A DNA stretch of 64,000 nt from an uncultured Prevotellaceae bacterium (GCA_902767775.1 CACXIP010000010.1:29662-93661), one strand, 5' to 3'; positions 9,599 through 55,063 are shown, counted from the stretch's first letter. Notes: generated by a model from the letters alone, not told the origin. A program made the numbers and translations.

Positions 9599-9634
9599 TT
9601 GTTTGATTCTATTGATTGGTATTCTTATATTGTC

Positions 9635-9642
9635 TACCTTTG
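9635..9642 (+). promoter_or_regulatory. Candidate -7 box (TACCTTTG) of the PUL operon
   Basis: It matches TAnnTTTG about 100 nt upstream of the ATG at 9745. The -33 element is unclear. Confidence 0.35.
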
Positions 9643-9744
9643 CCACAGAAACCGACAAAAGCCGCCATTTTTGGCGTTTTGTTCAACAATCTACCTACTC
9701 CAAGAAAACAAAATAACCTATACAATTATCTTAAAATCACTGTA

Positions 9745-12993: not shown

Positions 12994-13097
12994 TGGATGA
13001 AGGATGAAAGATGAAAGATGAAAGATTGATACTAAAGATTTTTCAAGCATTATGATGAAAGATGAAAGATTGATACTAAAGATTTTTCAAGCATTAT
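12994..13097. repeat. (GATGAAR)n array plus a perfect 44-bp tandem duplication in the susC-susD spacer
   Basis: ggatgaaggatgaaa is followed by two identical 44-mers gatgaaagatgaaagattgatactaaagatttttcaagcattat, at 13010-13053 and 13054-13097. Confidence 0.95.
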
Positions 13098-13106
13098 CGA
13101 GATAAA

Positions 13107-14654
13107 ATGAAAACCATTATGAAAAGACATATCAACATCATAGCCAGTTTCATTGCAGCTGCTTTTGTTCTGGCATCTTGCAGTGATGACTTCCTGGAGG
13201 TGAAGAATCCGACAGGTGAGCCTCTCGAGGAATACTACACCAACGAGGAGACACTCAACGAGGCCCTCACCTCAGCATACGCTCCCCTGCACTGGCCCGA
13301 CTGGGACAACACAGCCTACAACGACCTCACCGTCGACGCCGAGATTATGGGCGACGACTTCTGGGTGGGCGGTTCAGACAACACCGACAACCAGCACTGG
13401 CACCGCCTGTTCAACTTCGCAGCTGACGGCAACAATACCCTTGCCACCCTCTGGGGCGACTTCTACAGCGGCATCAAGCGCTGCAACGACGCCATCAAGT
13501 ATGCCGGTTGGAACAAAGGCAACATCAGCGAAGACTTCATCAACAAGATGGAGATGCAGGCACGTCTGCTCCGCGTCTACTACTACAACATCCTGTGGCA
13601 TTATTATGGCAACGTGCCCTTCTACCTGGAAAACCTCTCGCTGCCCTACACCGCGCCGCAGCTGAAAGCCGATGAAATCTACGCCCAGTTGCTGCCCGAG
13701 CTCGAGGCCATCATCGCCTCCAAGGTGCTCCCGATGCGCTGGCCCGCCGCTGAGTCAGGACGCGTCAGCCAGGCCTTCGCCTACATGCTCTATGCCGAAA
13801 TGGTGATGTACCAGAACGACACCGCACGCTTCCCGCAGGCTTTAGGCTACATGAAGGAAATCATTGCCAACAGCGAGTATGCCCTCAACCCCAGTTATGC
13901 CAATATCTGGGAAGAGAGCGGAGAGTGGAGCAAAGAAAGCATCTTTGAGATCAACTACAACGACGACCAGGCACAGCGCGACTGGGGTGTCGCAGCCCTG
14001 AACGCAGGCGGCAGCGTCCTCCCCACGCTTATCTCACCCAACGGCTTCTCCGATGACGAGTGGAGCGGTATGGACGGATGGGGATTCCTGCCCATGCGAC
14101 TTGAGACCTACGAGATGTTTGCCGAGGGTGACCTCCGTCGCGACGCCACCTGCTGGGATGTGCGCGGCACCACCTATACCGAGCGCTACCAGGACACCCA
14201 TATGTGGCTGAAGAAGTACCGTCCCAAACTCGCCAACTGCAACGATGCCGGACCGTCGCACAACCTCAACTACAACAACAACAAGCGCGTCTACCGCTAT
14301 GCCGAGACCCTGCTCAACGCAGCCGAACTGCTGCTGCAGACCGGTGGCAGTGCCTCTGAGGCAGCAGGCTATGTCAACCAGGTGCGCCAACGCGCTGGTC
14401 TGCAAGACCTTGCAAGCGTCTCTATCGACGACATCCTGACCGAGCGCCACATGGAGTTCTGCGGCGAGGGCAAGCGCTACTTCGACCTCGTCCGTGCCGA
14501 GGGCATCCCCGGAGCCACACAGAAGGCCACCACCATGCTCGTGCCCGACAAGTACGGCTACCGCACCAACACCTGGTCGCCCAGCAAGAAGCACATCCCG
14601 CTGGCCCAGTCAGAGCTTGATGCCGACCCCACTCTGGTACAAAATGCTTATTAA
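13107..14654 (+). CDS. SusD/RagB-family nutrient-binding outer-membrane lipoprotein
   Basis: It has a lipoprotein signal (AAAFVLASCSDDF) and lies directly after the SusC-like gene. TPR-like SusD blocks are present: FLRVYYYNILWHYYGNVP, RYAETLLNAAE and GEGKRYFDLVR. Confidence 0.9.
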   Translation: MKTIMKRHINIIASFIAAAFVLASCSDDFLEVKNPTGEPLEEYYTNEETLNEALTSAYAPLHWPDWDNTAYNDLTVDAEIMGDDFWVGGSDNTDNQHWHRLFNFAADGNNTLATLWGDFYSGIKRCNDAIKYAGWNKGNISEDFINKMEMQARLLRVYYYNILWHYYGNVPFYLENLSLPYTAPQLKADEIYAQLLPELEAIIASKVLPMRWPAAESGRVSQAFAYMLYAEMVMYQNDTARFPQALGYMKEIIANSEYALNPSYANIWEESGEWSKESIFEINYNDDQAQRDWGVAALNAGGSVLPTLISPNGFSDDEWSGMDGWGFLPMRLETYEMFAEGDLRRDATCWDVRGTTYTERYQDTHMWLKKYRPKLANCNDAGPSHNLNYNNNKRVYRYAETLLNAAELLLQTGGSASEAAGYVNQVRQRAGLQDLASVSIDDILTERHMEFCGEGKRYFDLVRAEGIPGATQKATTMLVPDKYGYRTNTWSPSKKHIPLAQSELDADPTLVQNAY

Positions 14655-14681
14655 TCCACACACCATATACAGAAATTCATT

Positions 14682-17096: not shown

Positions 17097-17097
17097 A

Positions 17098-18216
17098 ATG
17101 CGAAAATATCTTTTCTTCCTCGCCATGTTAGGAACGGCAGCCTTTGCCAGTTGCGGTGGTGGCGATGACGACAACAGCGCCCCTGCACCGCAGGTGACCA
17201 TCAGTTGCCAGCCCGAGAATCTCTCGGCTGGCGCTGAGGGGGGCATCTTCACCATCAACGTAAGCACCACCGGCAAGGAGTGGAGCGCCTACTCCAACCA
17301 AGACTGGATAGAGGTGTCGAACAAAGGCACCACCGCCGCCAGCGGCACCATCGAGGTGAATGTCAAGAGCAATCCCACCACAGAGCCCCGCACCGGCACC
17401 GTCCAACTGATGTCGGGCACCGCCCGCAAGGAGATTGCCGTGTCACAGGCTGCTGCCAAGGCTGCCTATGATGCCCCCGAAGGCTACTCGCTGGTGTGGC
17501 ACGATGAGTTTGAGAGCGGTACAGAACTCAATGGCAATGACTGGACCCATGAAGTGCAGGGCTCAGGATGGGTAAACAATGAGTTGCAGAACTACGTCAA
17601 CCACAAAACTCCCGGTGGTCAGTATGTCACCGAGGTAAGAAACGGCAATCTCCGCATCACTTGCCTGAAGGAGAACGGAAAAATCTATTCCGGGCGTGTC
17701 TATGCACAGGTCAATAAAGGTTGGCTTTATGGTTATTTCGAGGCCCGCATCAAACTGCCGAGCGGCAAGGGCACATGGCCCGCCTTCTGGATGATGCCTG
17801 TGGGCAACGACTATATCACCAATCCCTGGCCGATGTGCGGCGAGATAGACATCATGGAAGAGGTGGGTGCAGTTCCCAACGAGGTGTCGTCTTCGCTCCA
17901 TACCCAAGACTACAACCACACCAAGCGCACCCAGAAAACCCACGCAATGACCATCGACAAGGCCGAGGGTGAGTTCCACACCTATGCCTTGGAGTGGACT
18001 GCCGATGCCATCACCACCTATGTCGATGGAAAGGTGCAACTTACCGCTACTAAGAAACAAATGGGCAACAGCCACAACCAATGGCCTTTCCACTATGCCT
18101 TCTACCCCATCTTCAACCTCGCATGGGGTGGTTCCTGGGGCGGCATGAACGGTGTTGATGAGGGCGCTCTGCCTGCTGTTATGGAAATTGACTATATACG
18201 CGTATTCCAGAAGTAA
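17098..18216 (+). CDS. GH16 endo-beta-glucanase (laminarinase/lichenase type) with N-terminal BACON-like domain
   Basis: It has a lipobox (AAFASCGGGDD). A BACON-like beta-sandwich (ISCQPENLSAGAEGGIFTINVSTTGKEWSAYSNQDWIEV...) precedes the GH16 catalytic motif GEIDIMEE (ExDxxE) and the WPAFWMMP block. Confidence 0.9.
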   Translation: MRKYLFFLAMLGTAAFASCGGGDDDNSAPAPQVTISCQPENLSAGAEGGIFTINVSTTGKEWSAYSNQDWIEVSNKGTTAASGTIEVNVKSNPTTEPRTGTVQLMSGTARKEIAVSQAAAKAAYDAPEGYSLVWHDEFESGTELNGNDWTHEVQGSGWVNNELQNYVNHKTPGGQYVTEVRNGNLRITCLKENGKIYSGRVYAQVNKGWLYGYFEARIKLPSGKGTWPAFWMMPVGNDYITNPWPMCGEIDIMEEVGAVPNEVSSSLHTQDYNHTKRTQKTHAMTIDKAEGEFHTYALEWTADAITTYVDGKVQLTATKKQMGNSHNQWPFHYAFYPIFNLAWGGSWGGMNGVDEGALPAVMEIDYIRVFQK

Positions 18217-18219
18217 CCC

Positions 18220-20448
18220 ATGAGAAAACTCCTCACAACCCTTATCATCATGGCGGCACTGGGCGCATACGCCCAGCAGCCGGCCTATCTCAATGCCAGC
18301 CTGCCCATCGAGCAGCGTGTGGAGGATGCCCTCAAACGCATGACGCTCAACGAGAAGATTGCCGTCATCCACGCACAGAGCAAGTTCTCCTCCGCAGGTG
18401 TCCAACGGCTCGGCATCCCTGAGTTCTGGACCGATGACGGACCGCATGGCGTGCGCCCCGACGTGCTGTGGGACGAGTGGGAACAGGCAGGACAGACCAA
18501 CGACTCGTGCGTGGCATTCCCCGCCCTCACCAGTCTCGCCGCCTCCTTCAATCCCCAGATGGCCCTCCTCTACGGACGGAGCCTCGGCGAAGAAGCCCTC
18601 TACCGTGGCAAGGACATGATTCTTGGCCCTGGTGTGAACATCAACCGAACCCCGCTCGGAGGACGCAACTTCGAGTACATGGGTGAGGACCCCTACCTCG
18701 CCAGCCGCATGGTGGTGCCCTACATCCAAGGGCTGCAGTCAAACGGTGTCGCCGCCTGCGTGAAGCACTACGCCCTCAACAACGATGAGGAATACCGCCA
18801 TCAGGTGAACGTCATCGTCAGCGACCGTGCCCTGCATGAGATTTACCTGCCCGCCTTCAAGGCTGCCGTCACCGAAGGCAACGCCTGGGGCATCATGGGC
18901 GCGTACAACCTCTACAAGGGTCAGCACAACTGCCACAACGACATCATGCTCAACCAAATCCTCAAACGCGACTGGGGATTCGACGGTGTGGTCGTCTCCG
19001 ACTGGGGCGGTTGCCACGACACCGACGAGGCGGTGAAAAACGGCCTCGACCTGGAGTTCGGCACCTGGACCGACGGTCTGACGATGGGCAAGACCAATGC
19101 CTATGACCTCTATTATATGGCCGATGCCTACAAGAAAGCCATCCGCGAGGGCAAATATACAGAGAAGGAACTCAACGAAAAGGTGCGCCGTGTGCTGCGC
19201 CTCTTCTTCCGCACCAACATGCGCACCGACCGTGGACATGGTTTCCTCTGCTCAGAGAGCCACTATGAGGCAGCCCGGAAGATTGCCCAAGAGGGTATCG
19301 TCCTGCTGCAAAACAAGAACAACGTGCTCCCCATGCGGTTGGATGGCAAGCGCCGCATCCTCGTGGTCGGCGAGAACGCCATCAAGATGATGACCGTGGG
19401 CGGTGGCAGTTCATCGCTCAAGGTGCAGCACGAGATACTTCCCTTCGACGCCCTGCAGCAGTGCTGTAAGGCAGCCGGCGTCACCTGCGACTACGCCCGC
19501 GGCTATGTGGGCGACACCGTACAGAGTTACAACGGCGTCAACGTAGGGCGCAGCATCGCCGAGAAACGTTCACCGGAGGTTCTCCTCGAGGAGGCTGTAA
19601 CCATGGCCCGCGGCGCCGACTACGTGGTGGTGTTCGGAGGTCTCAACAAGAGCGACTACCAGGACTGCGAAGGTCACGACCGCAAGGAGTATGGCCTGCC
19701 CTACGGACAAGACAAACTGATGGAGCGCCTCGCCGAGGTCAATCCCAACCTCATTTTCGTCAACATCTCGGGCAATGCCGTCGCCATGCCATGGAAAGAC
19801 AAGGTGGCCGCCATTGTCCAAGGCTGGTTCATCGGTTCGGAAGCGGGCAACGCCCTCACCGACATCCTCACCGGCAAGGCCAATCCCTCGGGCAAGCTGC
19901 CCTTCACCTGGTTTGCCAACCTCAACGACGTGCCAGCCCACCGCCTCAATGCCTACCCAGGCACTTGGCGCGAGGGTCACGACATCATCGACGAAGAATA
20001 CAAGGAAGGTTTCTATATGGGTTATCGTGGCGCCGACTACTACAAGACCAAGCCCCTGTTTGCCTTCGGTCATGGTCTGAGCTACACCACATTTGAGATG
20101 GGGAAAGTCACCGCCGACCGCAAGAAGATGACCGCCACCGACAACATCACCTTCACCGTCGCCGTCACCAACACCGGCAGTCGGGCTGGTGCCGAGGTGG
20201 TGCAGGTCTACATCAGCGACCTCAAGTCATCGCTGCCAAGACCCCGCAAGGAACTCAAAGGCTTTGCCAAGGTGTGGCTGCAACCGGGAGAGACACGCGA
20301 TGTGACCATCACCCTCGGACGCGACGCCCTCAGTTATTATGACGACCGCAGCCAACAGTGGGTGGTGGAGCCTGGTGCCTTCGAAGCCCTCGTGGGCAAT
20401 GCCTCCGACCATCTCACCAGCAAGTGGAAGTTTGAGGTGACCCAATAG
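18220..20448 (+). CDS. GH3 beta-glucosidase
   Basis: 742 aa with a signal peptide. GH3 blocks are present: GRNFEYMGEDPYL, KHYALNN and GFDGVVVSDWGG (nucleophile Asp). The C-terminus is a Fn3-like domain (VVQVYISDLKSSLPRPRKELKGFAKVWLQPGE). Confidence 0.93.
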   Translation: MRKLLTTLIIMAALGAYAQQPAYLNASLPIEQRVEDALKRMTLNEKIAVIHAQSKFSSAGVQRLGIPEFWTDDGPHGVRPDVLWDEWEQAGQTNDSCVAFPALTSLAASFNPQMALLYGRSLGEEALYRGKDMILGPGVNINRTPLGGRNFEYMGEDPYLASRMVVPYIQGLQSNGVAACVKHYALNNDEEYRHQVNVIVSDRALHEIYLPAFKAAVTEGNAWGIMGAYNLYKGQHNCHNDIMLNQILKRDWGFDGVVVSDWGGCHDTDEAVKNGLDLEFGTWTDGLTMGKTNAYDLYYMADAYKKAIREGKYTEKELNEKVRRVLRLFFRTNMRTDRGHGFLCSESHYEAARKIAQEGIVLLQNKNNVLPMRLDGKRRILVVGENAIKMMTVGGGSSSLKVQHEILPFDALQQCCKAAGVTCDYARGYVGDTVQSYNGVNVGRSIAEKRSPEVLLEEAVTMARGADYVVVFGGLNKSDYQDCEGHDRKEYGLPYGQDKLMERLAEVNPNLIFVNISGNAVAMPWKDKVAAIVQGWFIGSEAGNALTDILTGKANPSGKLPFTWFANLNDVPAHRLNAYPGTWREGHDIIDEEYKEGFYMGYRGADYYKTKPLFAFGHGLSYTTFEMGKVTADRKKMTATDNITFTVAVTNTGSRAGAEVVQVYISDLKSSLPRPRKELKGFAKVWLQPGETRDVTITLGRDALSYYDDRSQQWVVEPGAFEALVGNASDHLTSKWKFEVTQ

Positions 20449-20450
20449 AG

Positions 20451-20538
20451 GTCAGTCGGACCTGTCGGACACGTCAGACCTGTCGGACCAATAAACTAAG
20501 GCTATGACTATGAACTATGAATTATGAACTATAAACTA
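20451..20538. repeat. Two adjacent tandem arrays: 9-mer (GTCGGACCT-like)x4 and 7-mer (TATGAAC-like)x5
   Basis: gtcagtcggacctgtcggacacgtcagacctgtcggacc lies at 20451-20489. ctatgactatgaactatgaattatgaactataaacta lies at 20502-20538. The second array contains the ATG at 20524. The same 7-mer family occurs at 28976-29003. Confidence 0.85.
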
Positions 20539-22203
20539 AAAAAACTCTGTATGCTGGCGGTGCTCGTCCTCCTTGGGGGACGGGCACTGGCACAGCACAA
20601 TCTCGACTCCATCTACCGATGTCTTGATGAAGAGATTGAGCGTTTTCCACAATATGTGGAGGCGCGCGAGCAGGAGGCCGACAACCTGCGCGAGCAATGG
20701 CAGACAGCCACCAGCGACAGCGCCCGCTACCGCCTTGCATACAGACTCTATGAGCAATATCATGCCTTCGTCAACGACTCCGCCATCCATTACCTCACCG
20801 AATGCATTACACTGGCGGAGAAGCTCAACCGTCCGTCAGATGCCGGCAGATGCCGCTCATTGCTCGCACGGAGCTGTTCCAACACCGGCATGTATGATGA
20901 GTCATTAGCCATCCTCAGTCAGGTCAACCCTACCCTGCTCGACCCCGAAGCATTGGGGAAATACTATGAAGCCAACAACCATGTATACAACGAACTCGCC
21001 TACTACACGCGCGTCGATGCCATGCGAGAGCATTATCTGGAAAAGGCGCAGCACTATGAGCAACTGATGCTCGCCACGCTGCCAGCCAATTCCGACGATG
21101 CCCTGCTTCGACGCGAGATGGTAGCCCGCAACGAAGGCAACCTGCAGCAGTCGATGGCCATCAACGACCAATGGCTCAAACAGGTGAAGCGGGGCAGTCA
21201 CCGCTACGCCCTGGTTGCCCTCTACCGGTATTTGGAATACATGGCGCAGAAAGACACCACAGAGATGATGTACTGGCTCTCGGAATCGGCCCTCGCCGAC
21301 GTGCGCAACGCCACGATGGACCAAGGTTCGCTGTGGGAGATGGCCAACCAACTGATGCTTCAAGGCGACATCGACCGGTCGTACCGCTACATCAGCTTCA
21401 CCAGCGACTGCACCAACCGCTATGGGTCGCGCCAGCGCAACTCGCAAATCGCCCCCCTCTTGTCGACTATCGCCAACGACTATAAGAAGCGCAGCGAGCG
21501 CAACCGCAACCGCCTCACACACACCATAGCCGGCATCAGCATCCTCGCCCTCCTGCTGATGGCAACCCTCCTCTATGTCAACCGACAGCGCAAACGCCTT
21601 GCTGCAGCACAGCACAATCTCAGGAAGAGCAACGACCTGCTGGCATCTGCCAACACCCAACTGTCGGAGAAGAACCAGGCATTGGAGGATGTCAACGTAC
21701 AACTGCATGCCCTCAATGCCCAACTGGCGGAGTCCAACCGTGTGAAGGAAGAGTATGTGGGGCGCTTCATGCGGCTCTGCTCACTCTACATCGACAAGAT
21801 GGACCAGTTCCGCAAGCGGGTGAACAAGATGATCAAGAACCACGAATACGAGGCACTCTACGACACTACCCGGGGTCAGGACTCCAAGACACAGCAACTC
21901 GAGCAACTCTATGAAAGTTTTGACGCCGCCTTCCTGCATCTTTTCCCCAATTTCGTCATTGAGGTGAACAAACTGCTCAAGCCTGAGGAGCAAATGGAAC
22001 TGGAGAAGAACAAGCGGATGAACACGAGCCTTCGCATCCTTGCCCTCATCCGCCTCGGCATCGACGACAGTTCAAAAATCGCCGAGTTCCTCAACTACAG
22101 CGTCAACACCATCTACAACTACCGCGCGCGCCTGAAAAGCAGTGCCGCCACCGACCGCGACACTTTCGAGGCAAGAGTAAAGCAGATTGGTCTGCCCGCC
22201 TGA
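20524..22203 (+). CDS. DUF6377-type transmembrane transcriptional regulator (periplasmic TPR-like domain, TM, coiled coil, C-terminal HTH)
   Basis: A signal peptide (LCMLAVLVLLGGRALAQ) precedes about 300 aa of helical repeats. The TM helix is IAGISILALLLMATLLYV followed by NRQRKR. A coiled coil (NLRKSNDLLASANTQLSEKNQALEDVNVQLHALNAQLAE) follows. The C-terminal HTH is LRILALIRLGIDDSSKIAEFLNYSVNTIYNYRARLK. The start could instead be ATG 20551. Confidence 0.7.
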   Translation: MNYKLKKLCMLAVLVLLGGRALAQHNLDSIYRCLDEEIERFPQYVEAREQEADNLREQWQTATSDSARYRLAYRLYEQYHAFVNDSAIHYLTECITLAEKLNRPSDAGRCRSLLARSCSNTGMYDESLAILSQVNPTLLDPEALGKYYEANNHVYNELAYYTRVDAMREHYLEKAQHYEQLMLATLPANSDDALLRREMVARNEGNLQQSMAINDQWLKQVKRGSHRYALVALYRYLEYMAQKDTTEMMYWLSESALADVRNATMDQGSLWEMANQLMLQGDIDRSYRYISFTSDCTNRYGSRQRNSQIAPLLSTIANDYKKRSERNRNRLTHTIAGISILALLLMATLLYVNRQRKRLAAAQHNLRKSNDLLASANTQLSEKNQALEDVNVQLHALNAQLAESNRVKEEYVGRFMRLCSLYIDKMDQFRKRVNKMIKNHEYEALYDTTRGQDSKTQQLEQLYESFDAAFLHLFPNFVIEVNKLLKPEEQMELEKNKRMNTSLRILALIRLGIDDSSKIAEFLNYSVNTIYNYRARLKSSAATDRDTFEARVKQIGLPA

Positions 22204-37759: not shown

Positions 37760-40700
37760 TTACCTCACCACCACCTTCTCACCGTTGATGATATAGATGC
37801 CCTTCTTCATCTTGACATTGACGTCGGTGCCGTCGGACAGTTTGCGGCCCTGCAGGTCGTAGACACCCTTCCTCACCATAGGCTCGTTGTTGATGGTCGT
37901 CTCGGTGATGGCGTTGAGGAAGAAGCTGTACTCCGCGATGTCGCTGTCGGCATAGCCCGGGGCCACCGCATAGGCCTTCAGCGTCATCTCGCCAGTCAGG
38001 GCTATCGGACCCTCGTAGCGCATTGCCGACTTGCTGTCGCACGGGCACGTGCCGTCGAGTGTGTAGTAGATGACAGCATCGGGAACCTCGCAGGTCAACT
38101 CGATGAGCGTGCCGTAGGTCAACTCGATGCCGTCGACATAGTTCGCCTCAGGCATCGGACAGATGAAGCCGTCTTCGTCCCTAACCATCACAATCGTCAC
38201 GGCCTCAATGCTGCTGTCGTCCAACAACTGGAAGACGACGGCCGTGGTGCCGCTCGCCTCGCCAGTCAGCGTGAGTACCGCCTTGCCCTCAGCGTCGAAG
38301 GTCAGTTCGGTGGCGTCGGCGGTGGCGATCATGTCGCTCAGCACCTTCGCTCTCACCTTCTTCCCGGCTGCTGCCGAAGCGGGCAGCGCATAAATGGTGA
38401 GTTCCGTCTGCTGGTCGTAGATGACATGGACAACACTGTCGGTCTCAAGCCGCAGCACGTCGGCCTTGATGTCGAACTCCTGCGAGAAGTCCTGGTTCAT
38501 CTGAACACCGGCATAGCTCGTCACGTTGCGCTTCACCGTCAGCGTCAGTGTCTGTCCCACGGGCAGCTGTGTGGCGGGCAGGAAGCGCGCCTTGTTGGTG
38601 AGCCGTTTGGCCATCGGGTCCTCGTCGTCAATCATGGTGTCAATGTCGCCATTGACCTTCTTGCCGCCCTGCGCCACGAAAATGGTGTTCGAGTTGAGGC
38701 TGTCGGCCATCATGTACTTGTCGAAGTTCACCTGCACCATCTGTGTCGTGGCCTTCACGCCGCTCACCTGCGGCTCGCTGAACTGCACCATGGCTTGGTT
38801 GACGTCGAGTTGAGGCGGAGGCACGGGCAGCCACTCGGAGTATTCCGTCTGGTAGCCCTGCTTCTCATACTTCACCTGCCACAGACCAGCAGGCACCATC
38901 CAGCCGTACTCGCCGTTCTCGTCGGTGAACTGCGGGTTTTCCTGTGCGAAGCGCTCGGCATCCCACACCATCACCTTCTCCACGTCGTCGCCAAACTGGT
39001 TCTTGCCTATCTGCTTGTAGAACACGGTTGCCGTCACGCCCTCCACTCGGTTGGAGGGCACGCCCTCATAGACATAGCCGGAGGGGTCGAGGATGGGAGT
39101 GGTACAACCTCCACCTTTGCAGCCACCGCAATTGCTTGTGCAGCCTCTCTTCTTCTTTTTGTTGCAGCGCAACTGGCTCTTCTCGTACACGAAATGATTC
39201 CACTCTTCCTGGAATCGTGCTTCGTAGTATTTCCCTCCCATATAGTTCAGTGCCATCAGTCCGAGAGAGAAGAACAACCCAAGTCCACCTTCTGGTGCTG
39301 CCACAATCGAGGCACACCCCATCAGGCTGGCCAAGGCACCACCAATACTTACCAAGTCACCAGTAATCTTGGCTGTATTGTAAATTAGTGAATAGTCGGT
39401 GAACGTCAAGATGTCTTGCGACAACTCGTCGCAACGTCTTTGGTCCTCGGGACAAGGTGAGGGCAACGAATTGTTGAGTGCAATCAGACGATCAATCTCC
39501 TTATTGAAAGTCATATAGTCTCCCACGAGACTGATGATGCCACCTAATGTACCTATTCCATCCCCAACCTTGAATTGGTTGATGGCCGAACTGATCTTAC
39601 TTGCCCACCTTGTCTTGGTACTTATTACTGCCAGTTTTTTCAGACGGGTCAGGTTCATTGCCGCCCTCTCCATCGCGTTCAGTTTGGTGGTGTTTTGGGT
39701 AATCTGATACCATTTGATGAGCTTCGATTGCTCCTTTAGCAAATTGTTGGTGTAAATCTTGATGGACTGGATTGCCACGTCACACCAGTTGGAAATCTCT
39801 GAAACGTATTCATTGAGTTTGCTTAATTTATCATGGAACTCACTGATCATGTTTTGGATGTCTTTCCAGCCGAAACTGGCTATTCTTCTGGCAGTATTGG
39901 CGGCACCAGGACTGTAGGTATAGGCCAGGTTGTCGGTGAGGCTGACAATGCTGTAGCTGTTGTCTTCCTGTGCGCGGATGAAGAATTTGGAGCCGTCATC
40001 AAGCAGGAGCTCCTCATACCCGGCAGCCAGCAGCGACATTTCGGTCATACCGGTGGCCGGTCCCACGGTGACACCCTCCATCATATTACCTATTTCTTGT
40101 AAAGACAAAGCATTGTCGCCCATGGTTTGTTCGAAATAGGTCATTTCGTTAATTAACTTATCGATGTCGGGCATCATGGTGGCTTCATCATCCTCTGTCA
40201 CATCAGCCACCTCTATGGTCACACCGTCCAACTCAGACATCTTGACAAGGAGTGCCATTATCTCGTTGCCTATGGCCTCAGCGGCATCACCATTGCCTGC
40301 ATTGACCTGAGCCTGCATCTCTTCCAACTTTTGGTCTATCGACCCCCTTAGTTGACCCACCTCAGCATCCAACTGCAATGAGTTGTTGTACATGTCAATG
40401 ATGTCCTCTATCTCCTGATGAGAGCCGATGATGTCATGGTGGTAGTAAGGTTTCACATCAACCGTATAGGGCAGCGAGCGGGTATTGAACTTGTCGTAGG
40501 CTATCCACCGGTTCTTGCGCGCATTGTAGTGGGCAGGAATGGTAAATTCCTCGGCATCAGGCCCCTGGGTGGAGATCGTTAGGTCAACGGCATATACTTT
40601 CGTGGTGTCATTGTTCGACAGATTGATTTCAAAGGTGAAATCCGTATTGTAACCTTCTCTGAGGTCGAAACCATAAGAGGTAGGTGATGCAGAACCCGTC

Positions 40701-47000: not shown

Positions 47001-47178
47001 AAACAGTGAGTGATGTCACATCGGAGAGTTCCCCCATCTCCTCTATCTGCTCCTGGATTTTCACAAACAAGGTGCCTGCCTCTGTCAGGTTGACGGTGAC
47101 GTTCAACCCCAACTGGGCATTGGCTACAACCATGACTGTCATCCATAACATCATGGTCAGAAGTAGTCGTCTCATCAT
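44086..47178 (-). CDS. BspA-type leucine-rich-repeat surface protein with T9SS-like C-terminal tail
   Basis: It has a signal peptide (MMLWMTVMVVANAQ). More than 10 LRR_5-type units span aa ~90-500, for example IPNTLKKIGGSAFNGCKCLSSCKLPDSVAVIESRLFWNCKSLREVQLP. The cap is TLYVPAASLSLYQANNRY. A ~450-aa beta-rich region precedes the tail SGIYNLNGQPVSTPQRGIYIKDGKKVIW. Confidence 0.85.
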   Translation of the reverse strand: MMRRLLLTMMLWMTVMVVANAQLGLNVTVNLTEAGTLFVKIQEQIEEMGELSDVTSLTVSGRLNRDDYNVIRNQMKNLAYLNLAGIDEESTLLMSIGGLKRLKTIIISNVATELPGSCFSGCDSLQSITIPNTLKKIGGSAFNGCKCLSSCKLPDSVAVIESRLFWNCKSLREVQLPKALTTIRGQAFDGTALPTFTLPQGVVIDGDGAFANNDSLRSFYFPDGLVNEKEVGTSTFSGCTNLTTVRLPQTLTTIPKNFFAYTAIPNLNLPSTVTSIGSGAYYRCSALKKETLPNTLKSLDSQVFSSSSLEEVDWPASATIIPAEAFRSCVQLKRVSIPETVDSLGRNVFLYCSAITNVHLPEGIRTLDGTFNECESLTEVNIPSTVTYLSSHTFSNCKSLTHIDIPDGVTYIGSGCFQKTSLTEIKLPSKLQNIGGYAFNGTKLRRVVVPEGCRSIGTRVFYSDSLKVLDLPSTLVSLYGTILGDNSYFHPDSVIFRAMTPPYAKENVFTNRETQTTLYVPAASLSLYQANNRYNNVENMGTIKGSTSVMNVLDFMSIDKNSGLQQGKYDVNLIDTYWAGTTLEVKNDHHPRMAVEEGAQFHIGTLSMQMIAGDQFWFTDNKWQSFINRGTVTADVIDLNWNMAPEHFFTPSFDVRLSEIVPEYPNTPYGFYRYDSGARAAGNFNGTWVRVGADETLHAGQGYAFRCGKTPLKNDYTSLHHRWIAENAHSLNSYFLATNDITLSLQHFNGEFPHNRNWNFIGNPYPAFLDIRGVDFDGPMLVRGGKIWNAVSALDDEFVLDPMGAIFMQAPDGTNSISFSAARRQHTVKFNKDAAVNGRMELRRADQNSHRVVYNLMLSHDNEEVARTRFVINPETTTGYDIGHDLPVMSEGDTQTLLYTQAKGLAYAINERPLDDGIVRLGLQVAETGTYTLSLSIKGNNTDEVWLIDNETGERTLLNDQTEGYSFSVAEAGIFNQRFVIALGNADPTGISDVETVQPIISSGIYNLNGQPVSTPQRGIYIKDGKKVIW

Positions 47179-47278
47179 ATCCTTATAGTATTGTTTAAGT
47201 ATTATTAATGTTTTTCACAAATATCCGACAAAATAATGTTCTGTCAATTTGTGACAAAAATAGTAAACTATAAGGATA
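47178..47278 (-). promoter_or_regulatory. Nested inverted repeats plus a candidate -7 box (TATTTTTG) directly upstream of the LRR gene
   Basis: The outer 12-bp inverted repeat is TATCCTTATAGT at 47178-47189 paired with ACTATAAGGATA at 47267-47278. The inner 8-bp repeat is TCACAAAT at 47215-47222 paired with ATTTGTGA at 47247-47254. The minus-strand TATTTTTG at 47262-47255 matches TAnnTTTG. Confidence 0.4.
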
Positions 47279-47336
47279 ATTTTCTTGCAAATCATCTTTT
47301 TTAACTTGCAGATGATGTTTTGCAAGTACTTAGGCT

Positions 47337-49085
47337 TCAAGATTGATGATTGTTTTCCTTCCACTCACTGGGGGTCATGCCTGTGGCGCTCTTGAAGGAG
47401 CGGAAGAAGGCTGACTCAGATGAAAAGCCTGAACGCATCCACACCTCGGTAATTTTTTGGTCTGGTCGCTGGCGCATCAGTTTTTGGGCATGCTCCACAC
47501 GATAGTTGCTCACAAACTGTGAGAAAGAAATGCCCTTCTGACTGTTGATGCAATTGGAGATGATGTTTCGGTTGGTGTTGAGCATGACTGCCACATCATT
47601 CAATTTCAGGTTTTGGTTGAGATAGACCTGTTGCTGCTCCATCAGAGCAATGATGCGAAGCATGAGAAGATCGGAAATCTCTGAGTCGGACTGGTCGAAC
47701 GAGGTGGATTGTGCATCCATGCCTCTTCGCTTTTTTCTCAGCCACAAAAGGCCAAAAACAGAAACCAAAAGCAGCACTGCCACGGGCAGCAGGAGCCAAA
47801 GCCATCCCTGTGACTTTTTAGGTGATGCCGGCCTGGAATATTGACTTAAAGGCAGGATAAATGCCGAGGATAGGGGTGAAAAGTTGTCATTATCCAAATT
47901 GCCACCAATAGTCTTATTGTAGACATAACCACCGGCAATCATCAGGTCACCCTCATCTGTCAGGACAGAGACTCCACCACACTCAGGTAAAGGGTCGGTA
48001 TAATATATCGTGAGCGGCGCGGGACACTTGTCATACTCGATGCACAGCACGTAGATGCGGTTGTCGATGTCATAGCCTACACAATATCCCCGATGCGCCA
48101 CCCTGTCGGTGATGAGAGGGGTGGAGAAATTGAACGTGCCATAAGGACCGACAGTCGGAACAGGACAAAGGGTGGGCAGAAGGGTAAAAGTAGTGTCACG
48201 CACCAGTGCGAAAGCCATTTTGTGGGGTTTTCCAAAAAAAGCCGTACCAGAATCGTCACACTCCTGCAGGGCAAGCAGATGGGTATAGTCTCCTGTTGCC
48301 TCATTGCCGATGAAGCCGATGTTGTTGGAATAATTGTAACAGAAGGACAAGGGCTGCCATTCTTTCAGCAAAGGGACTTGGAAAGGCTCGCCCCGCAGAC
48401 GGTCGACCACATCGGTATTCAGATATTTGCCATGGGTATCGACGCACCCCATAACAAGGACATCATCGGCTGTGGTGCGAAAGATATAGGGAGTGCTGCG
48501 GTCAGCGGAAGGTTTCTTGACAAAAGAGAATGTGCGGTCACCGTCGAAGACCTCAATGGCATCATCTGCATACCAGTTGCCTGCCACCACTACCCTACCG
48601 CTGTCAATCTCCGTACCTATGGCCAGAGTGCGCTTCGTGTCCAGGCTACTGAAGCCACGGAAAGAGTGGGTAGCGGGGTCGTACTCCTCCACAGGGTAGG
48701 TCTGGCCGATACCCAAGGGTTTCTCATGTCCTCCGGCGAGAATCACCTTTCCCGAACTAAGCACCACGCAGAGGCCGTTGTCATGAGGATATACCGTTTC
48801 CATGAGGTGCCACTTACCGTGGCTGTAGTATTCCGCCGTGGCTGTGGGTTTGAAATCCTTGGTGTGGCCGCCCACCACTGTCACCTCGCCGTTGACACAG
48901 AATATATTGTGCCCACTGCGGGGAATGTTGAGGTTGGGCAACCGCTCCACATCAATCTTCACAAAGGGGCAGGTCAGGCTGTCGGCATGGGCCTCGGCAC
49001 GGGCAATAATCGCAATGAACGGCATCATGAGGATGCCGCTCCAAAGGAAGAATCTCAATGAGTGTATCTTTCTGATGCCGTTCAT
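47337..49085 (-). CDS. Single-pass transmembrane regulator: periplasmic Kelch-like beta-propeller, TM helix, cytoplasmic AraC-type HTH
   Basis: It has a signal peptide (LWSGILMMPFIAIIARAEA). Repeated blades end in GG (VTVVGGHT, VILAGGHE, VVVAGNWY, LMIAGGYV). The TM helix is WLWLLLPVAVLLLVSVFGLLWL followed by RKKRRG. The AraC HTH is LNDVAVMLNTNRNIISNCINSQKGISFSQFVSNYRVEHAQKLM...RSGFSSESAFFRSFKSATGMTPSEW. Confidence 0.75.
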   Translation of the reverse strand: MNGIRKIHSLRFFLWSGILMMPFIAIIARAEAHADSLTCPFVKIDVERLPNLNIPRSGHNIFCVNGEVTVVGGHTKDFKPTATAEYYSHGKWHLMETVYPHDNGLCVVLSSGKVILAGGHEKPLGIGQTYPVEEYDPATHSFRGFSSLDTKRTLAIGTEIDSGRVVVAGNWYADDAIEVFDGDRTFSFVKKPSADRSTPYIFRTTADDVLVMGCVDTHGKYLNTDVVDRLRGEPFQVPLLKEWQPLSFCYNYSNNIGFIGNEATGDYTHLLALQECDDSGTAFFGKPHKMAFALVRDTTFTLLPTLCPVPTVGPYGTFNFSTPLITDRVAHRGYCVGYDIDNRIYVLCIEYDKCPAPLTIYYTDPLPECGGVSVLTDEGDLMIAGGYVYNKTIGGNLDNDNFSPLSSAFILPLSQYSRPASPKKSQGWLWLLLPVAVLLLVSVFGLLWLRKKRRGMDAQSTSFDQSDSEISDLLMLRIIALMEQQQVYLNQNLKLNDVAVMLNTNRNIISNCINSQKGISFSQFVSNYRVEHAQKLMRQRPDQKITEVWMRSGFSSESAFFRSFKSATGMTPSEWKENNHQS

Positions 49086-49101
49086 CGCTGAGTTTGAGCA
49101 G

Positions 49102-50784
49102 TTATCTCACGCCGCCACCGTGACCGCCGCCGCTGAAGCCGCCGCCGCCACCGAAAGAGGAGCGACCGCCACCACCGCTGCTACGTGAATCGACCTTCGA
49201 CTGCACAGAGTGGGCACTGTTGTAGGTGGTCGCCATAAGAACGGGCACCAGCGTATTGTTGGTAAGGTTACGGGTGATTTGGTTCATCTCCAGATATTCC
49301 GGATTGAGCTGTTTCATATCTTTCTTCACCTGGTCGGCGATGCCAAAGAGAGTGGCATAGACGAGATAGTCGTTCCACAATGCCACTTCACTCAGATGGC
49401 GCTCGTTGGCGAGGGTAAAGTCATTAAGGAACATCTTGAGACCGAACACTTTGCGTGTATCGTCGATGGTGCGTTTCGCCTCCTTGATGGAGCATGATTT
49501 ATCGATGCTTCTCATCAAGTCCATCACTTCTGTCTCGTGGTTTTGCATCCACCGCCTCAATTCCTTGGGCTGCAAGATATGATCTTCGCCAGCTGCCTGA
49601 TAGAAGATGTCGTAGAGTTTCCGTATTTCAGGGGTGTTAATCAGACGGTTCTGGTCATTGAAGTCAGTGATAGTGATACAATCTTGAAGAGAACCCTTAC
49701 CGCCCATCATCTTTTTCAGACCCGATGGTTCCAAGAATTGTTGCTCGATGCGGAGGGTATTGGTGCGGATGAGTCTCATTATCATCGCTCCGATAAGGTC
49801 CTCAGTCTTGATGCCGCCACTCACATAGAAAGCATCGTGGAGGCTGCGTGCCCTCACCAGATTGCCGTTGACGGGAATCTCGCGGTACCAATCCACGGTC
49901 TCGAGGAGTTTTTTGCGCTCACGCCTTGTTCTCACCCCGTACCATATGGCAGCTATGGCGATGAAAATGCAGAAGAGGACACCTAAGAGCATATCAAGGT
50001 CTGCCGTAACAGCATTCCATGCCTTTCGCCACCAGGTCTGCTCCTTGTAGTCGCTGCCCTCAAACGCCTTCTTGCGCACGTCCTTGAATGAACCCTCGCC
50101 CTTCATGGATGGATGCAGCAGACCTTTTGGAATCTCTACCATGACAATCATTGACATCTCGGAAGTCATCGGTTCGGTGGTCCTCACCACCACGCCGTCG
50201 TCCTCAAACGACACATCGCCTTTGAAACCGAATGCCCATGCCTTGACGGAGTCTTCAGGCAGTCCATCCTCAGTGTTGGCGAAGATGGAGACTTCTGCCG
50301 ACTGGGGTGCAGGTTTCATTTCATCGGTTACGAACATCCAGTTGAAGCCATCGCTCTCCTTGTAGGAGCGCACCATGTTGGTAACGGTATACCTCACCGT
50401 ATAGTAACGAAAACCGCTTTCGCCAAGTCCCCAGCACAGTTCATAGCCATCGCTTTTCTTCACCATGCCGCAACGGCCCGCCTTCTGCTGCCGCGAGCGG
50501 TCAACATTCCACGAACCCTCGTTGACATACGTGGTTCCCGTGTTGTCAGACACCGAGAAGTTCTTGATGTCGCTGCCGTTGAGGTTGCCGATGACGATAT
50601 AGCACTCCGTACCCTCGTTATCGATTTCCATCTGGCGCGTCTCCTCGATATCGGCATCACCATTGCTGCGGAGAACCACCTTGATGTCGAGGTGACGGAG
50701 AACAGGCTCCGCTGCCGCCCCAAGCGAGGCGGCGAGCATCAGGAGCAACAGTCCTATGCGGTGCTTACTTCTTGAATGCCTCAT
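49102..50784 (-). CDS. DUF2207-family membrane protein with Gly-rich C-terminal tail
   Basis: I chose the start at MRHSRSKHRIGLLLLMLAASLGAAAE, which overlaps the lemA stop by 20 nt. An N-terminal extracytoplasmic beta domain is followed by TM helices (LLGVLFCIFIAIAAIWYGV). The tail is SSGGGGRSSFGGGGGFSGGGHGGGVR. Pairing with lemA is the usual context for this family. Confidence 0.7.
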   Translation of the reverse strand: MRHSRSKHRIGLLLLMLAASLGAAAEPVLRHLDIKVVLRSNGDADIEETRQMEIDNEGTECYIVIGNLNGSDIKNFSVSDNTGTTYVNEGSWNVDRSRQQKAGRCGMVKKSDGYELCWGLGESGFRYYTVRYTVTNMVRSYKESDGFNWMFVTDEMKPAPQSAEVSIFANTEDGLPEDSVKAWAFGFKGDVSFEDDGVVVRTTEPMTSEMSMIVMVEIPKGLLHPSMKGEGSFKDVRKKAFEGSDYKEQTWWRKAWNAVTADLDMLLGVLFCIFIAIAAIWYGVRTRRERKKLLETVDWYREIPVNGNLVRARSLHDAFYVSGGIKTEDLIGAMIMRLIRTNTLRIEQQFLEPSGLKKMMGGKGSLQDCITITDFNDQNRLINTPEIRKLYDIFYQAAGEDHILQPKELRRWMQNHETEVMDLMRSIDKSCSIKEAKRTIDDTRKVFGLKMFLNDFTLANERHLSEVALWNDYLVYATLFGIADQVKKDMKQLNPEYLEMNQITRNLTNNTLVPVLMATTYNSAHSVQSKVDSRSSGGGGRSSFGGGGGFSGGGHGGGVR

Positions 50785-55033: not shown

Positions 55034-55063
55034 CTTTCATCTTTCATCCTTCATCTTTCATCC
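55034..55063. repeat. (GATGAAR)n array in inverted orientation, right flank of the four-helix-bundle cassette
   Basis: ctttcatctttcatccttcatctttcatcc is the reverse complement of ggatgaaagatgaaggatgaaagatgaaag. Confidence 0.9.

Follow-up and report, generated by a model that had tools for sequence, protein, structure and literature searches.

A putative membrane-tethered Kelch-AraC regulator beside an LRR-giant protein operon in an uncultured Prevotellaceae bacterium

What controls two large, apparently exported proteins whose genes lie directly behind that of a predicted membrane-bound regulator? The question is raised by a 64,000-nucleotide stretch of DNA (the window; GCA_902767775.1 CACXIP010000010.1:29662-93661), in which three minus-strand genes follow one another. 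A sequence-only reading had described these genes and their 158-nt and 38-nt spacers, and the coordinates re-derived here match it exactly:

47337..49085, minus strand: regulator gene (ORF), 582 aa
47179-47336: regulator-LRR spacer, 158 nt
44086..47178, minus strand: LRR protein gene (ORF), 1030 aa
44048-44085: LRR-giant spacer, 38 nt
37760..44047, minus strand: giant protein gene (ORF), 2095 aa
37688..37714: strong GC-rich hairpin of 12 pairs, where the giant and acetyl-CoA hydrolase genes converge

From its sequence, the hairpin is likely a bidirectional terminator marking the end of the operon. No promoter motif was found in the 38-nt LRR-giant gap or within about 115 nt 5' of the regulator gene, and no T9SS components are encoded within the 64-kb window.

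The regulator and its family

The regulator combines a predicted periplasmic sensor with a C-terminal DNA-binding domain:

N-terminus: hydrophobic signal peptide, with a lipobox in some homologs
47853..48968, minus strand: periplasmic Kelch-type beta-propeller, residues ~40-411, from alignment, AF2 model, PDB profile search and Foldseek
47739..47804, minus strand: single TM helix, residues ~428-449 (helix 427-453 in the AF2 model), followed by RKKRRG (positive-inside)
47355..47591, minus strand: AraC double HTH (HTH_18), residues 499-577

Both Pfam HTH models exceed their gathering scores, HTH_18 at 62.1 bits (E 6e-17; cut-off 33.6) and HTH_AraC at 33.4 bits (cut-off 26.6), which places the protein in the AraC/XylS family. 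The best PDB match of the HTH region is the DNA-binding domain of an HTCS (12aw, E 4e-10); the DNA-binding domains of ToxT, AraC and GadX are also matched. On the sensor, Pfam Kelch_1 and Kelch_6 remain sub-threshold (18 bits, E 2e-3), while the family profile recovers the SAKe designer Kelch protein (E 4e-11) and KLHL3/Keap1 (1e-5 to 1e-4) from the PDB. A Foldseek search with the AF2 model (pLDDT 79) returns the Kelch domains of Keap1, KLHL3 and SAKe at E ~1e-10, probability 1.0 and TMt 0.5-0.57, with galactose oxidase also among the matches. As modelled, the sensor is confirmed as a member of the Kelch beta-propeller superfamily. The signal peptide, Kelch-like blades, TM helix with RKKRRG and AraC double HTH proposed earlier are all borne out, and the structure search that had been suggested recovers the Kelch fold. 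Pfam detects no HisKA, HATPase_c or receiver domain in the protein, and the stretch from the TM helix to the HTH is only about 45 residues long. According to the predicted topology, the sensor is periplasmic and the HTH cytoplasmic.

Homologs are numerous. More than 1,262 remain at 90% clustering, and clustering at 50% identity gives 272 groups at E<=1e-30, almost all of 540-600 aa. The 112 relatives among GTDB species representatives come almost entirely from rumen Prevotellaceae. Throughout the family the Kelch propeller is very highly conserved, with many invariant alignment residues. As conservation is much stronger in the sensor than in the cargo, the Kelch domain is expected to respond to a shared periplasmic or envelope cue rather than to a cargo-specific one.

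The genes behind these regulators encode exported proteins of many families, including lipoproteins that carry no CTD. Signal peptides occur in about 63 of 70 first ORFs downstream of the operator described below, and Pfam finds LRR_5 in 11 of 55 (about 20%). The regulator family is specific neither to LRR/giant cargo nor to T9SS. The trio of regulator, LRR_5 protein and giant nevertheless recurs, as a synteny check suggested earlier had asked: at L007-9 (regulator 70% identical), at L077 (42% identity), and at L090/91 and L092 (giant 47% and 41% identical), with different flanking genes each time. At L010, the nearest species representative (regulator 75% identical), the cargo is different. 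Since the family spans many cargo types and the L010 cargo differs, the regulator is a member of a large family, undescribed but known in kind, and not a categorically new system. Of the earlier candidacy as a new system, the undescribed family stands; the novelty of kind does not.

A predicted operator between regulator and cargo

The spacer between the regulator and LRR genes holds a compact set of predicted regulatory elements:

47321..47327, minus strand: inverted half-site copy ACTTGCA, able to pair with site 1 or site 2 into hairpins
47304..47312, minus strand: putative distal operator half-site (site 1), TCTGCAAGT
47283..47291, minus strand: putative proximal operator half-site (site 2), TTTGCAAGA, 21 bp from site 1 and over the -33 region
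47255..47262, minus strand: predicted Bacteroidetes-type -7 box, TATTTTTG, 21 nt 3' of site 2

The element at 47255..47262 is presumably the -7 box, judged by the TAnnTTTG consensus of Bacteroides promoters, and the predicted 5'UTR of the LRR-giant transcript is about 70 nt. The putative half-sites adjoin the regulator stop codon directly on its 3' side. The "hairpin and nested inverted repeats" noticed earlier in this spacer are real, but they are better described as one inverted and two direct copies of a TGCAAG half-site.

This layout extends well beyond the window. Among distinct regulator-to-cargo spacers from rumen Prevotellaceae, 56 of 75 contain TGNNAG-N15-TGNNAG, with its 21-bp period, as against 0.46 of 75 on average (maximum 4) when the spacers are shuffled. 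A TAnnTTTG -7 box lies 21-22 nt 3' of the second half-site in most loci. The other 19 spacers fail the strict half-site regex, among them those of the closest trio loci, L007 and L011, where site 1 reads CCGCA(A/C)GT. A scan of 2.86 Mb finds 58 copies of the full pattern, 47 of which lie directly 3' of a regulator stop codon; the 64-kb window has only one. The remaining 11 occurrences all fit the same half-site consensus; of 10 examined, two follow a second, paralogous regulator, seven precede a further ORF, and one has no downstream ORF call. Most of the seven further ORFs encode a signal peptide, and one is zinc-ribbon-like.

The half-sites also appear to track the protein that would read them. 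Mutual information with the variable NN dinucleotide peaks at a residue of the HTH2 recognition helix in the alignment, S555 in the window (SGFSSE-S-AFFR). Serine pairs with CA, threonine with TA, arginine with GC/TC, and methionine or glutamine with TT; the pairing recurs across 17 DBD clusters, although shared descent confounds this co-variation. The extra regulator of L075 keeps the rule, with arginine and TC. By their sequence and spacing, the conserved repeats form a putative XylS/AraC-type activator site with class II geometry. Regulator control of the cargo pair, as first suggested, gains support from a conserved predicted operator and promoter that lie between them and co-vary with the DNA-binding domain.

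The cargo proteins and their tails

Both downstream genes encode multi-domain proteins that begin with a signal peptide and end in a short tail:

44086..47178, minus strand: LRR protein, with signal peptide, BspA-type LRR_5 region, ~450-aa uncharacterised beta region and short T9SS CTD
44089..44211, minus strand: predicted short T9SS CTD of the LRR protein, PT/GISDVETVQPIISSGIYNLNGQPVSTPQRGIYIKDGKKVIW, with 41 aa beyond the PT/GI cleavage motif
37760..44047, minus strand: giant, with signal peptide, InlB-B-like domain plus degenerate LRR/cap, beta-rich stalk, long helical bundle, Cys-rich linker, CarboxypepD_reg-like domain, Big_5, CHB_HEX_C_1 and short CTD
39230..39367, minus strand: conserved hydrophobic helical hairpin of the giant, residues ~1561-1606, forming the tip of a five-helix bundle in the AF2 model
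37763..37912, minus strand: short/intermediate CTD of the giant, last ~50 aa, with motif B VYDLQGRKL, D KGIYI and E EKVVVR

Tandem LRR_5 repeats (354 bits, E 3e-107, four stretches in Pfam) together with the signal peptide make the LRR protein BspA-like; neither Pfam nor the PDB offers a match for its residues 521-1030. The giant represents an uncharacterised protein family. Its cap region weakly matches the cap at the C-terminus of Bacteroides LRR proteins of solved structure (4fd0, E 0.015), and the cap motif reported as common to both cargo proteins is present in each as quoted.

The tails are related to each other, aligning by BLASTP at 33% over 39 aa (E 1e-3), as the motif quoted in the sequence-only reading implied. 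For Prevotella intermedia, experiments have established a class of short CTDs (Ye et al. 2025, PMC11969387), defined by 40-55 aa at the extreme C-terminus, PT/GI-like cleavage, motifs B (Y..G), D (GxY then I) and E (K/R), and a B-to-D spacing of 1-6 aa. The LRR protein tail has every one of these motifs (DPT/GI, 41 aa, YNLNG, GIYI, KKVIW). The giant tail has motifs B, D and E within about 50 aa, with an atypical cleavage region and a B-D gap of 12 aa. TIGR04183 and PF18962 match neither tail, even at E<=10, which rules out canonical type A CTDs for both; the CTD models do detect the positive-control cargo of L010, L047 and L066 (E 6e-7 to 3e-9). A profile of the short tails aligns with a long-CTD profile in hhalign at 89.8% probability (E 1.8e-6). 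Additionally, where the two cargo proteins have their short tails, homologs of each have long CTDs of the PF18962 or DUF6383 type, PF18962 occurring at the giant's tail position in its distant homologs. The proposal that the tails are T9SS signals therefore holds in so far as they fit the P. intermedia short CTDs and are profile-homologous to long CTDs, while the standard HMMs give no match. Cargo at sister rumen Prevotella loci carries canonical TIGR04183 CTDs, which indirectly supports T9SS secretion here; short and long tails thus both occur among the rumen loci.

The giant's hairpin is conserved in character despite low overall identity, with a 19-residue Kyte-Doolittle maximum of 1.3-2.1 in 42 of 42 aligned homologs. 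Gly, Ala and Ser abound in its arms, and the surrounding bundle is predicted to be soluble. Colicin-type and alpha-pore-forming toxins share this arrangement of a hairpin at the tip of a bundle. On the structural model, the hairpin is a candidate membrane-insertion module.

Proposed mechanism and comparison with known systems

The reading favored here, with a probability of roughly 0.7, is that the regulator is a membrane-tethered activator of the LRR-giant operon, whose products are surface T9SS cargo. The signal peptide would carry the Kelch propeller into the periplasm, and the TM helix would link it to the cytoplasmic HTH. Two regulator subunits would then bind the 21-bp-spaced direct repeats at 47304-47312 and 47283-47291, the proximal one overlapping the -33 region in a class II geometry like that of XylS, RhaS and AraC I1-I2. 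Operator occupancy would activate a two-gene operon running from the LRR gene across the 38-nt gap through the giant gene to the terminator. Both products would be exported by Sec, secreted via T9SS, cleaved near PT/GI and attached to the cell surface; Sec export combined with Prevotella-type short CTDs leads to the expectation of T9SS secretion and surface attachment. The LRR protein may act as a BspA-like adhesin, and the giant would be a surface protein of several domains, its N-terminus adhesin-like and its helical bundle bearing the hydrophobic hairpin. Architecture, topology signals, operator geometry, co-variation, synteny and tail homology come from sequence comparison; we infer that the regulator activates instead of repressing, that it binds as a dimer, that secretion in this organism depends on T9SS, and what the products do.

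Two other accounts concern the spacer. The conserved sequence behind the regulator gene might combine a terminator hairpin with an ordinary promoter, the regulator acting elsewhere or on itself and the adjacency of exported genes being incidental. At many loci the inverted copy 5' of site 1 does fold into a hairpin, and a T-run often comes next (e.g. L041, L052, L088, L089); the window segment folds as RNA at -15 kcal/mol (z -3.2), and L028-30 and L047 have the hairpin and lack the second direct repeat. Yet in the window an A-run, not a T-run, follows the hairpin, and site 2 lies outside a simple hairpin; most loci nevertheless place it exactly 21 bp from site 1, with the -7 box 21-22 nt away. 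The same architecture also precedes extra exported-protein genes that have no preceding regulator gene, and the half-site NN tracks the recognition-helix residue of the adjacent regulator, so this account is very unlikely. It is also quite unlikely that the regulator is a repressor or anti-activator, or that its DBD is freed by regulated intramembrane proteolysis. Proteolysis does control some membrane-tethered factors, such as TcpP and RsgI-type anti-sigma factors, sequence does not reveal the direction of control, and an inverted repeat, TGTCACAAATTGACA, at 47242-47256 over the -7 box and predicted start could be a separate repressor site. Direct repeats with a 21-bp period and the proximal copy at -33 are, by contrast, a hallmark of class II activation, exemplified by XylS at Pm, RhaS and AraC I1-I2, and an operator next to the regulator gene at nearly all loci fits membrane-bound action in cis.

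The giant invites a different doubt. Its hairpin, with a Kyte-Doolittle value of about 1.9 over 19 residues and kept in all homologs, could hold the protein back in the inner membrane and so prevent T9SS export, leaving an anchored envelope protein with a vestigial tail; the failure of standard CTD models on that tail would agree. However, motifs B, D and E persist in the tails of 36 of 36 close homologs, canonical PF18962 CTDs are found on distant homologs that share the hairpin, and Gly/Ala/Ser-rich arms at the tip of a soluble bundle look toxin-like, which makes anchoring unlikely.

Beyond the membrane-tethered activator, a broader combined reading is tentative and rather doubtful. It would treat the locus as one of many plug-and-play sensor, operator and promoter cassettes, a family specific to rumen Prevotellaceae in which the HTH2 residue sets the NN of TGNNAG and several paralogs per genome each switch a different exported protein in response to a shared periplasmic cue. 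The LRR/giant pair would be a weapon or adhesin pair, the LRR protein targeting and the giant hairpin inserting into a protozoal, fungal or bacterial membrane. If true, this would reveal a new class of T9SS-delivered membrane-active effector.

Among known systems, HTCS such as BT4663 share a periplasmic beta-propeller, a C-terminal AraC DBD and adjacent envelope protein genes. Unlike this regulator, they contain histidine kinase, phosphoacceptor and receiver domains, use Reg_prop/Y_Y_Y rather than Kelch-type propellers, and target PULs rather than single exported proteins of many families; the missing kinase and receiver domains (Pfam) and the ~45-residue TM-to-HTH distance exclude the regulator from HTCS. 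ToxR, TcpP, CadC and VtrA are likewise bitopic, with a periplasmic sensor, a cytoplasmic DBD and targets adjoining the regulator (cadC-cadBA). Their OmpR-type winged helix is N-terminal, so that the DBD comes first, whereas here the order is sensor, TM helix and C-terminal AraC HTH; the locus encodes no ToxS/TcpH/VtrC-type partner protein. TIGR04094, the YSIRK-targeted surface antigen transcriptional regulator, also places an AraC regulator beside a surface-protein gene, but it is Gram-positive and differs in N-terminal domain, phylum and secretion route. Its weak match here covers the HTH only (E 1e-10), and 41 bits against a cut-off of 200 rule out membership.

The cargo resembles the short-CTD proteins of P. 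intermedia (PMC11969387) and BspA of Tannerella forsythia, with tails of 41-50 aa, PT/GI, motifs B, D and E, and LRR proteins as common cargo; the organism here is a rumen Prevotella known from sequence, and the giant's B-D spacing is intermediate. The regulator itself can be compared with AraC/XylS class II activators (XylS at Pm, RhaS/RhaR, AraC I1-I2), which share the C-terminal double HTH, two direct repeats (predicted here, at 21 bp), a proximal repeat over -35/-33 and a recognition-helix residue that tracks the half-site. Those activators are soluble, with a cytoplasmic ligand/dimerisation domain, whereas here a periplasmic Kelch domain is joined through a TM helix and the predicted promoter is of the Bacteroidetes type (TAnnTTTG).

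A three-gene locus that recurs with changing neighbors

The locus consists of three consecutive minus-strand genes, for which ORF calling gave the same positions and spacers as the sequence-only reading: 158 nt between the regulator and LRR genes, and 38 nt between the LRR and giant genes.

47337-49085, minus strand, regulator gene (582 aa), ORF call
44086-47178, minus strand, LRR protein gene (1030 aa), ORF call
37760-44047, minus strand, giant gene (2095 aa), ORF call
37688-37714, hairpin with a 12-bp stem between the giant gene and the acetyl-CoA hydrolase gene, terminator scan

The translations contain the N-terminal signals, the transmembrane helix followed by RKKRRG, the LRR cap motifs of the two cargo proteins (TLYVPAASLSLYQA and VRVPAEAVPLYQA) and the related tails, all as first read from the DNA. 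Pfam assigns HTH_18 and HTH_AraC to the regulator, LRR_5 to the middle protein (E 3e-107), and Fn3_assoc/CHB_HEX_C_1 to the giant, together with weak Big_5, CarboxypepD_reg and InlB-B-like matches. The flanking genes are housekeeping genes: LemA and DUF2207 genes lie upstream on the same strand, and a convergent acetyl-CoA hydrolase gene lies downstream of the giant. The DUF2207 stop is separated from the regulator start by 16 nt (49086-49101), and no TAnnTTTG box occurs within about 115 nt upstream of the regulator in the window; the regulator may share a transcript with the LemA-DUF2207 genes. The gene upstream of the regulator is not conserved among other loci. An Rfam scan of 37500-49400 found no RNA family. 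The E. coli-type sigma-70 scan was uninformative on promoters because those of this organism are of the Bacteroidetes type, and only the terminator at 37688-37714 was gained from the sigma-70/terminator scan. The remaining window, with a SusC/SusD/GH3 PUL, RNase R, PolA, UvrC and CysS, is ordinary Prevotella chromosome. The PUL (9616-22203, plus strand) encodes a SusC-like TonB receptor, a SusD-like protein, an 804-aa protein without a Pfam match and a GH3 glycosidase.

The proposed association of the three families was borne out in related loci, where the regulator, an LRR_5 protein (~1,050-1,140 aa) and the giant recur with different flanking genes each time. Regulators of loci L007-L009 are 70% identical to that of the window. 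In L077 the identities are 42% for the regulator, 32-33% for the LRR protein and 20-48%, depending on region, for the giant, while the giants of L090/L091 and L092 reach 47% and 41%. L094/L095 carry an LRR-giant pair at a contig end. Throughout the trio loci the LRR and giant genes are adjacent, with gaps of 30-82 nt.

The regulator family, its predicted operator and a candidate recognition code

Kelch matches to the regulator in Pfam fall below threshold, so an alignment of 23 homologues (A1) and an AF2 model (pLDDT 79) were made. In the model, about 29 beta-strands (residues 40-411) are followed by a long helix (427-453) and an AraC domain of seven helices. The family profile matches solved Kelch proteins (E 4e-11 to 1e-4), and Foldseek with the model retrieves Keap1, KLHL3, designer Kelch proteins and galactose oxidase (E about 1e-10), both of which uphold the Kelch-like blades seen earlier. 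The closest solved relative of the HTH is the DNA-binding domain (DBD) of a Bacteroides hybrid two-component system (HTCS; 12aw, E 4e-10). Some homologues in A1 begin with a lipoprotein-type signal, which agrees with an exported N-terminal domain. This predicted periplasmic domain stands out for its conservation: at an overall identity of 55-60%, dozens of its residues, among them His, Glu, Asp and Trp, are invariant.

The family is large and ecologically narrow. It comprises more than 1,262 matches at 90% clustering and 272 clusters at 50% identity (E<=1e-30), nearly all of 540-600 aa. The 112 relatives among GTDB species representatives are almost all rumen or ruminant-gut Prevotellaceae MAGs and include two cultured strains, Xylanibacter ruminicola D31d and Prevotella aff. 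ruminicola Tc2-24. Several genomes encode at least two paralogues, sometimes within one locus. Full-text literature searches of incomplete coverage, on Kelch or transmembrane AraC regulators in Prevotella or Bacteroidetes and on control of T9SS cargo by AraC proteins, returned no account of this family. Cluster look-up places all three proteins in NCBI, ENA and Logan assemblies, annotated as unnamed or "hypothetical".

Comparison of the spacers that separate the regulator stop from the following gene on that strand, taken from all loci (75 distinct sequences), revealed a common architecture. Two TGNNAG half-sites, in which NN is a variable pair, stand exactly 21 bp apart in 56 of the 75; shuffled spacers average 0.46 and never exceed 4. 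In most of these 56, a TAnnTTTG box, the Bacteroidetes -7 promoter element, follows 21-22 nt past the proximal half-site (site 2). Across 2.86 Mb of locus sequence there are 58 instances of the full pattern TGNNAG-N15-TGNNAG-N20-23-TAnnTTTG; 47 come directly after a regulator stop, and the other 11 all fit the same half-site consensus. Ten of these 11 were examined: two sit after a second paralogous regulator (L027, L075), seven stand ahead of another ORF, which in most cases has a signal peptide, in one case is zinc-ribbon-like and in L039 is divergent from the regulator, and one has no downstream ORF called. The direct repeat is also present in the trio loci L077 and L090. In the window, the 158-nt spacer contains the following elements.

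47321-47327, inverted half-site copy, ACTTGCA
47304-47312, site 1 (distal half-site), TCTGCAAGT
47283-47291, site 2 (proximal half-site), TTTGCAAGA
47255-47262, -7 box, TATTTTTG

No second site of this architecture occurs elsewhere in the 64-kb window; short GATGAAAG-type tandem repeats at 55034-55060 (minus strand), caught by the half-site regex, are unrelated to the operator.

The "hairpin and nested inverted repeats" reported for this spacer correspond to its three half-site copies. As RNA, these copies could form a 14-bp hairpin (dG -15 kcal/mol, z -3.2), and many sister loci have an equivalent hairpin with a T-run directly after it, which probably also terminates the regulator transcript. 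With inverted repeats of only 7-14 bp that enclose 10-12 nt and no promoter, the spacer does not fit an invertible promoter, and phase variation was rejected on this ground. A perfect inverted repeat, TGTCA-CAAAT-TGACA (47242-47256, minus strand), overlaps both the -7 box and the point where transcription of the LRR operon is predicted to start; its conservation in L007 and L011 is only partial, and it could act as another regulatory site.

The variable pair differs by subfamily, being CA, TA, TC, GC or TT. Among 130 DBD alignment columns, the highest mutual information with NN belongs to residue X of SGFxxE-X-xFFRxFK, which directly follows the conserved Glu of the second recognition helix. 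Ser at this position goes with CA, Thr with TA, Arg with GC or TC, and Met/Gln with TT; an Arg that faces the guanine opposite C makes chemical sense. In the window regulator this residue is S555. The pairing reappears across 17 DBD clusters (65% identity), and the additional L075 regulator obeys it, with Arg and TC. This co-variation is supportive, not decisive, for binding of the site by the regulator, since such statistics are inflated by shared descent.

XylS at Pm, RhaS, and AraC at I1-I2 act through two 21-bp direct repeats, the proximal one abutting -33. From this shared geometry we infer that two regulator subunits would activate transcription through the predicted 21-bp repeats. The operator almost always immediately adjoins the regulator gene, as might be expected of a membrane-retained factor that finds its site in cis. 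The conserved predicted operator and promoter between regulator and cargo, together with the DBD co-variation, favor the earlier proposal that the regulator controls the adjacent genes. At this locus, the regulator would drive a conserved pair of predicted T9SS surface proteins.

Exported proteins and module variants

Cargo varies widely across loci. About 63 of 70 distinct first downstream ORFs have a signal peptide; 25 are lipoprotein-type without a T9SS C-terminal signal domain (CTD), 13 are short-tailed and three have a canonical CTD. Pfam families among 55 of these ORFs include LRR_5 (11), LRR_8 (9), BACON (7), Lcl_C (4) and Por_Secre_tail (3), with Laminin_G_3, dockerin, Fib_succ_major, peptidase C10 and one GH2 besides. 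Even L010, the closest species representative (regulator 75% identical), has a different cargo, a 521-aa protein with a canonical CTD. Given this variety, the regulator family is linked to exported proteins generally, not to T9SS or to the window cargo. Nine loci (L042, L046, L049, L053, L058, L070, L080, L083 and L072) have as cargo a small lipoprotein (240-335 aa) ending in ...G.SVRPVR, which resembles the Fib_succ_major/Lcl_C lectin-like type; in the first six, a gyrB-like gene lies convergent downstream.

The LRR and giant tails align at 33% over 39 aa (BLASTP, E 1e-3). A canonical type A CTD was rejected for both, as Pfam and NCBIfam searches of the isolated tails at E<=10 gave no CTD model match (TIGR04183, PF18962), while these models do detect the long CTDs of sister cargo. 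Prevotella intermedia has 48 "short CTDs" of 40-55 aa with three predicted strands, and LRR proteins are common among their cargo (Ye et al. 2025, PMC11969387). Short CTDs retain motif B (Y..G plus a basic residue), motif D (GxY-I) and motif E (K/R), with only 1-6 aa between B and D; cleavage prefers PT/GI, judging from five short CTDs with determined sites, and a total of six cargo, counting those with short and with long CTDs, showed C-terminal glycosylation (PMC11969387). The LRR tail, NADPT/GISDVETVQPIISSGIYNLNGQPVSTPQRGIYIKDGKKVIW, agrees with this description in every respect, and the giant tail has motifs B, D and E with a B-D gap of 12 aa. By hhalign, a profile of 26 short tails aligns with one of 15 long CTDs (89.8% probability, E 1.8e-6), with motifs B and D in register and a 12-14 aa deletion between them. 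Homologues of the LRR C-terminal half keep "...RFxLxL..TGI" and then carry a 70-aa DUF6383 long CTD in place of the short tail. On the strength of the motif fit, the profile alignment and the DUF6383 homologues, we accept the reading of both tails as predicted T9SS sorting signals, of the short-CTD class. This class, so far reported from P. intermedia only, seems to occur in rumen Prevotellaceae as well.

The giant family is small, with 77 matches, about 36 of them full-length Prevotella proteins. Distant homologues (26-29% identity over >90% of the length) carry an N-terminal LRR_5 fusion and a C-terminal canonical PF18962 CTD, which links LRR and giant functions and supports predicted T9SS export. 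The LRR C-terminal half has nothing in common with the giant family except LRRs and the tail, which leaves this fusion as the only Rosetta-stone link. Pfam (E<=1) and PDB sequence searches gave nothing credible for giant residues 321-1640 or LRR residues 521-1030. In an AF2 model of giant residues 1101-1700 (pLDDT 75), a beta-sandwich is followed by a helical region, then by five long helices (1394-1624), and lastly by a Cys-rich linker and a beta module. The basic linker, CNKKKKRGCTSNCGGCKGGGC (39128-39190, residues ~1620-1640), joins the helical bundle to the family's most conserved module, the CarboxypepD_reg-like LDPSGYVYEG..., and its Cys positions are conserved family-wide (C528 and C540 of the giant-family alignment A3). 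The LDPSGYVYEG module is common even to SLH- or dockerin-bearing LRR proteins. Between the last two helices (~1561-1606) lies a Gly/Ala/Ser-rich hydrophobic hairpin, whose character is kept in all 42 aligned homologues (Kyte-Doolittle 1.3-2.1). Foldseek against the PDB returned only generic long-helix matches for the model (best E 5e-3, TM<0.2), with YaxA at rank 39 (probability 0.07), and so gives no ground for claiming homology to pore-forming toxins. As nothing significant was found, we put forward a membrane-insertion role for the hairpin as a hypothesis only.

Several loci show variants of the module. L027 (10441-12250) and L075 (8930-10679) contain a second paralogous Kelch-TM-AraC regulator, with its own direct-repeat operator, a different NN and its own exported-protein gene after it; these loci are tandem arrays of modules. 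Extra operators with a -7 box precede further exported-protein genes past the first cargo in L013 (13877 and 18918), L022 (9014) and L041 (12459), so some regulators probably control several promoters in a row. In L039 (~9831, minus strand), the operator and promoter lie upstream of the regulator on the opposite strand, facing the divergent gene of a 577-aa protein that ends in a canonical long T9SS CTD. L090 (3042-3398) and L091 have, downstream of a 510-aa regulator, a stand-alone 118-aa AraC HTH ORF between the operator/promoter and the LRR gene, which may be what is left of a second regulator, or else a small competitor in soluble form. In a Prevotella MAG, the L001 module (10001-17512; also L012 and L002) sits between sufB and sufC and looks like an insertion into the suf operon. 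It encodes the regulator, an AAA_14/DUF4143 ATPase, an 859-aa Beta_helix_3 protein and a second AAA_14. The regulator spacer of these three loci lacks the direct-repeat operator and has a tandem 23-nt unit, CACAAACAACCGAACAAAATCAT, instead, in more copies in L002 than in L001.

Significance and relation to known systems

Rumen Prevotella are among the most abundant livestock gut bacteria, and little is known of how their surface proteome is regulated. These findings add a large transmembrane regulator family with a precise predicted operator, a promoter geometry and a candidate one-residue specificity determinant, whose predicted targets are mainly LRR adhesins, BACON/lectin-like lipoproteins and T9SS cargo. 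They also flag a family of 2,100-aa surface proteins with a conserved hydrophobic hairpin as a candidate for functional study. Should they be confirmed, these pairs of regulator and operator could find use in Bacteroidota as orthogonal expression switches that sense the outside.

The claim of a new system holds in part: the family is undescribed in the literature found, but its components belong to known groups, the regulator being an AraC family member by its HTH and a Kelch superfamily member by its sensor. We found no description of these regulators, which we rate as a large family of probable one-component transmembrane activators, specific to one niche and with a predicted operator code. 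Their proposed working mode is that of AraC/XylS class II activators. In membrane topology the regulator is like ToxR and CadC, yet it is not a ToxR-type protein, and it resembles a Bacteroides HTCS without kinase and receiver, though it is not an HTCS.
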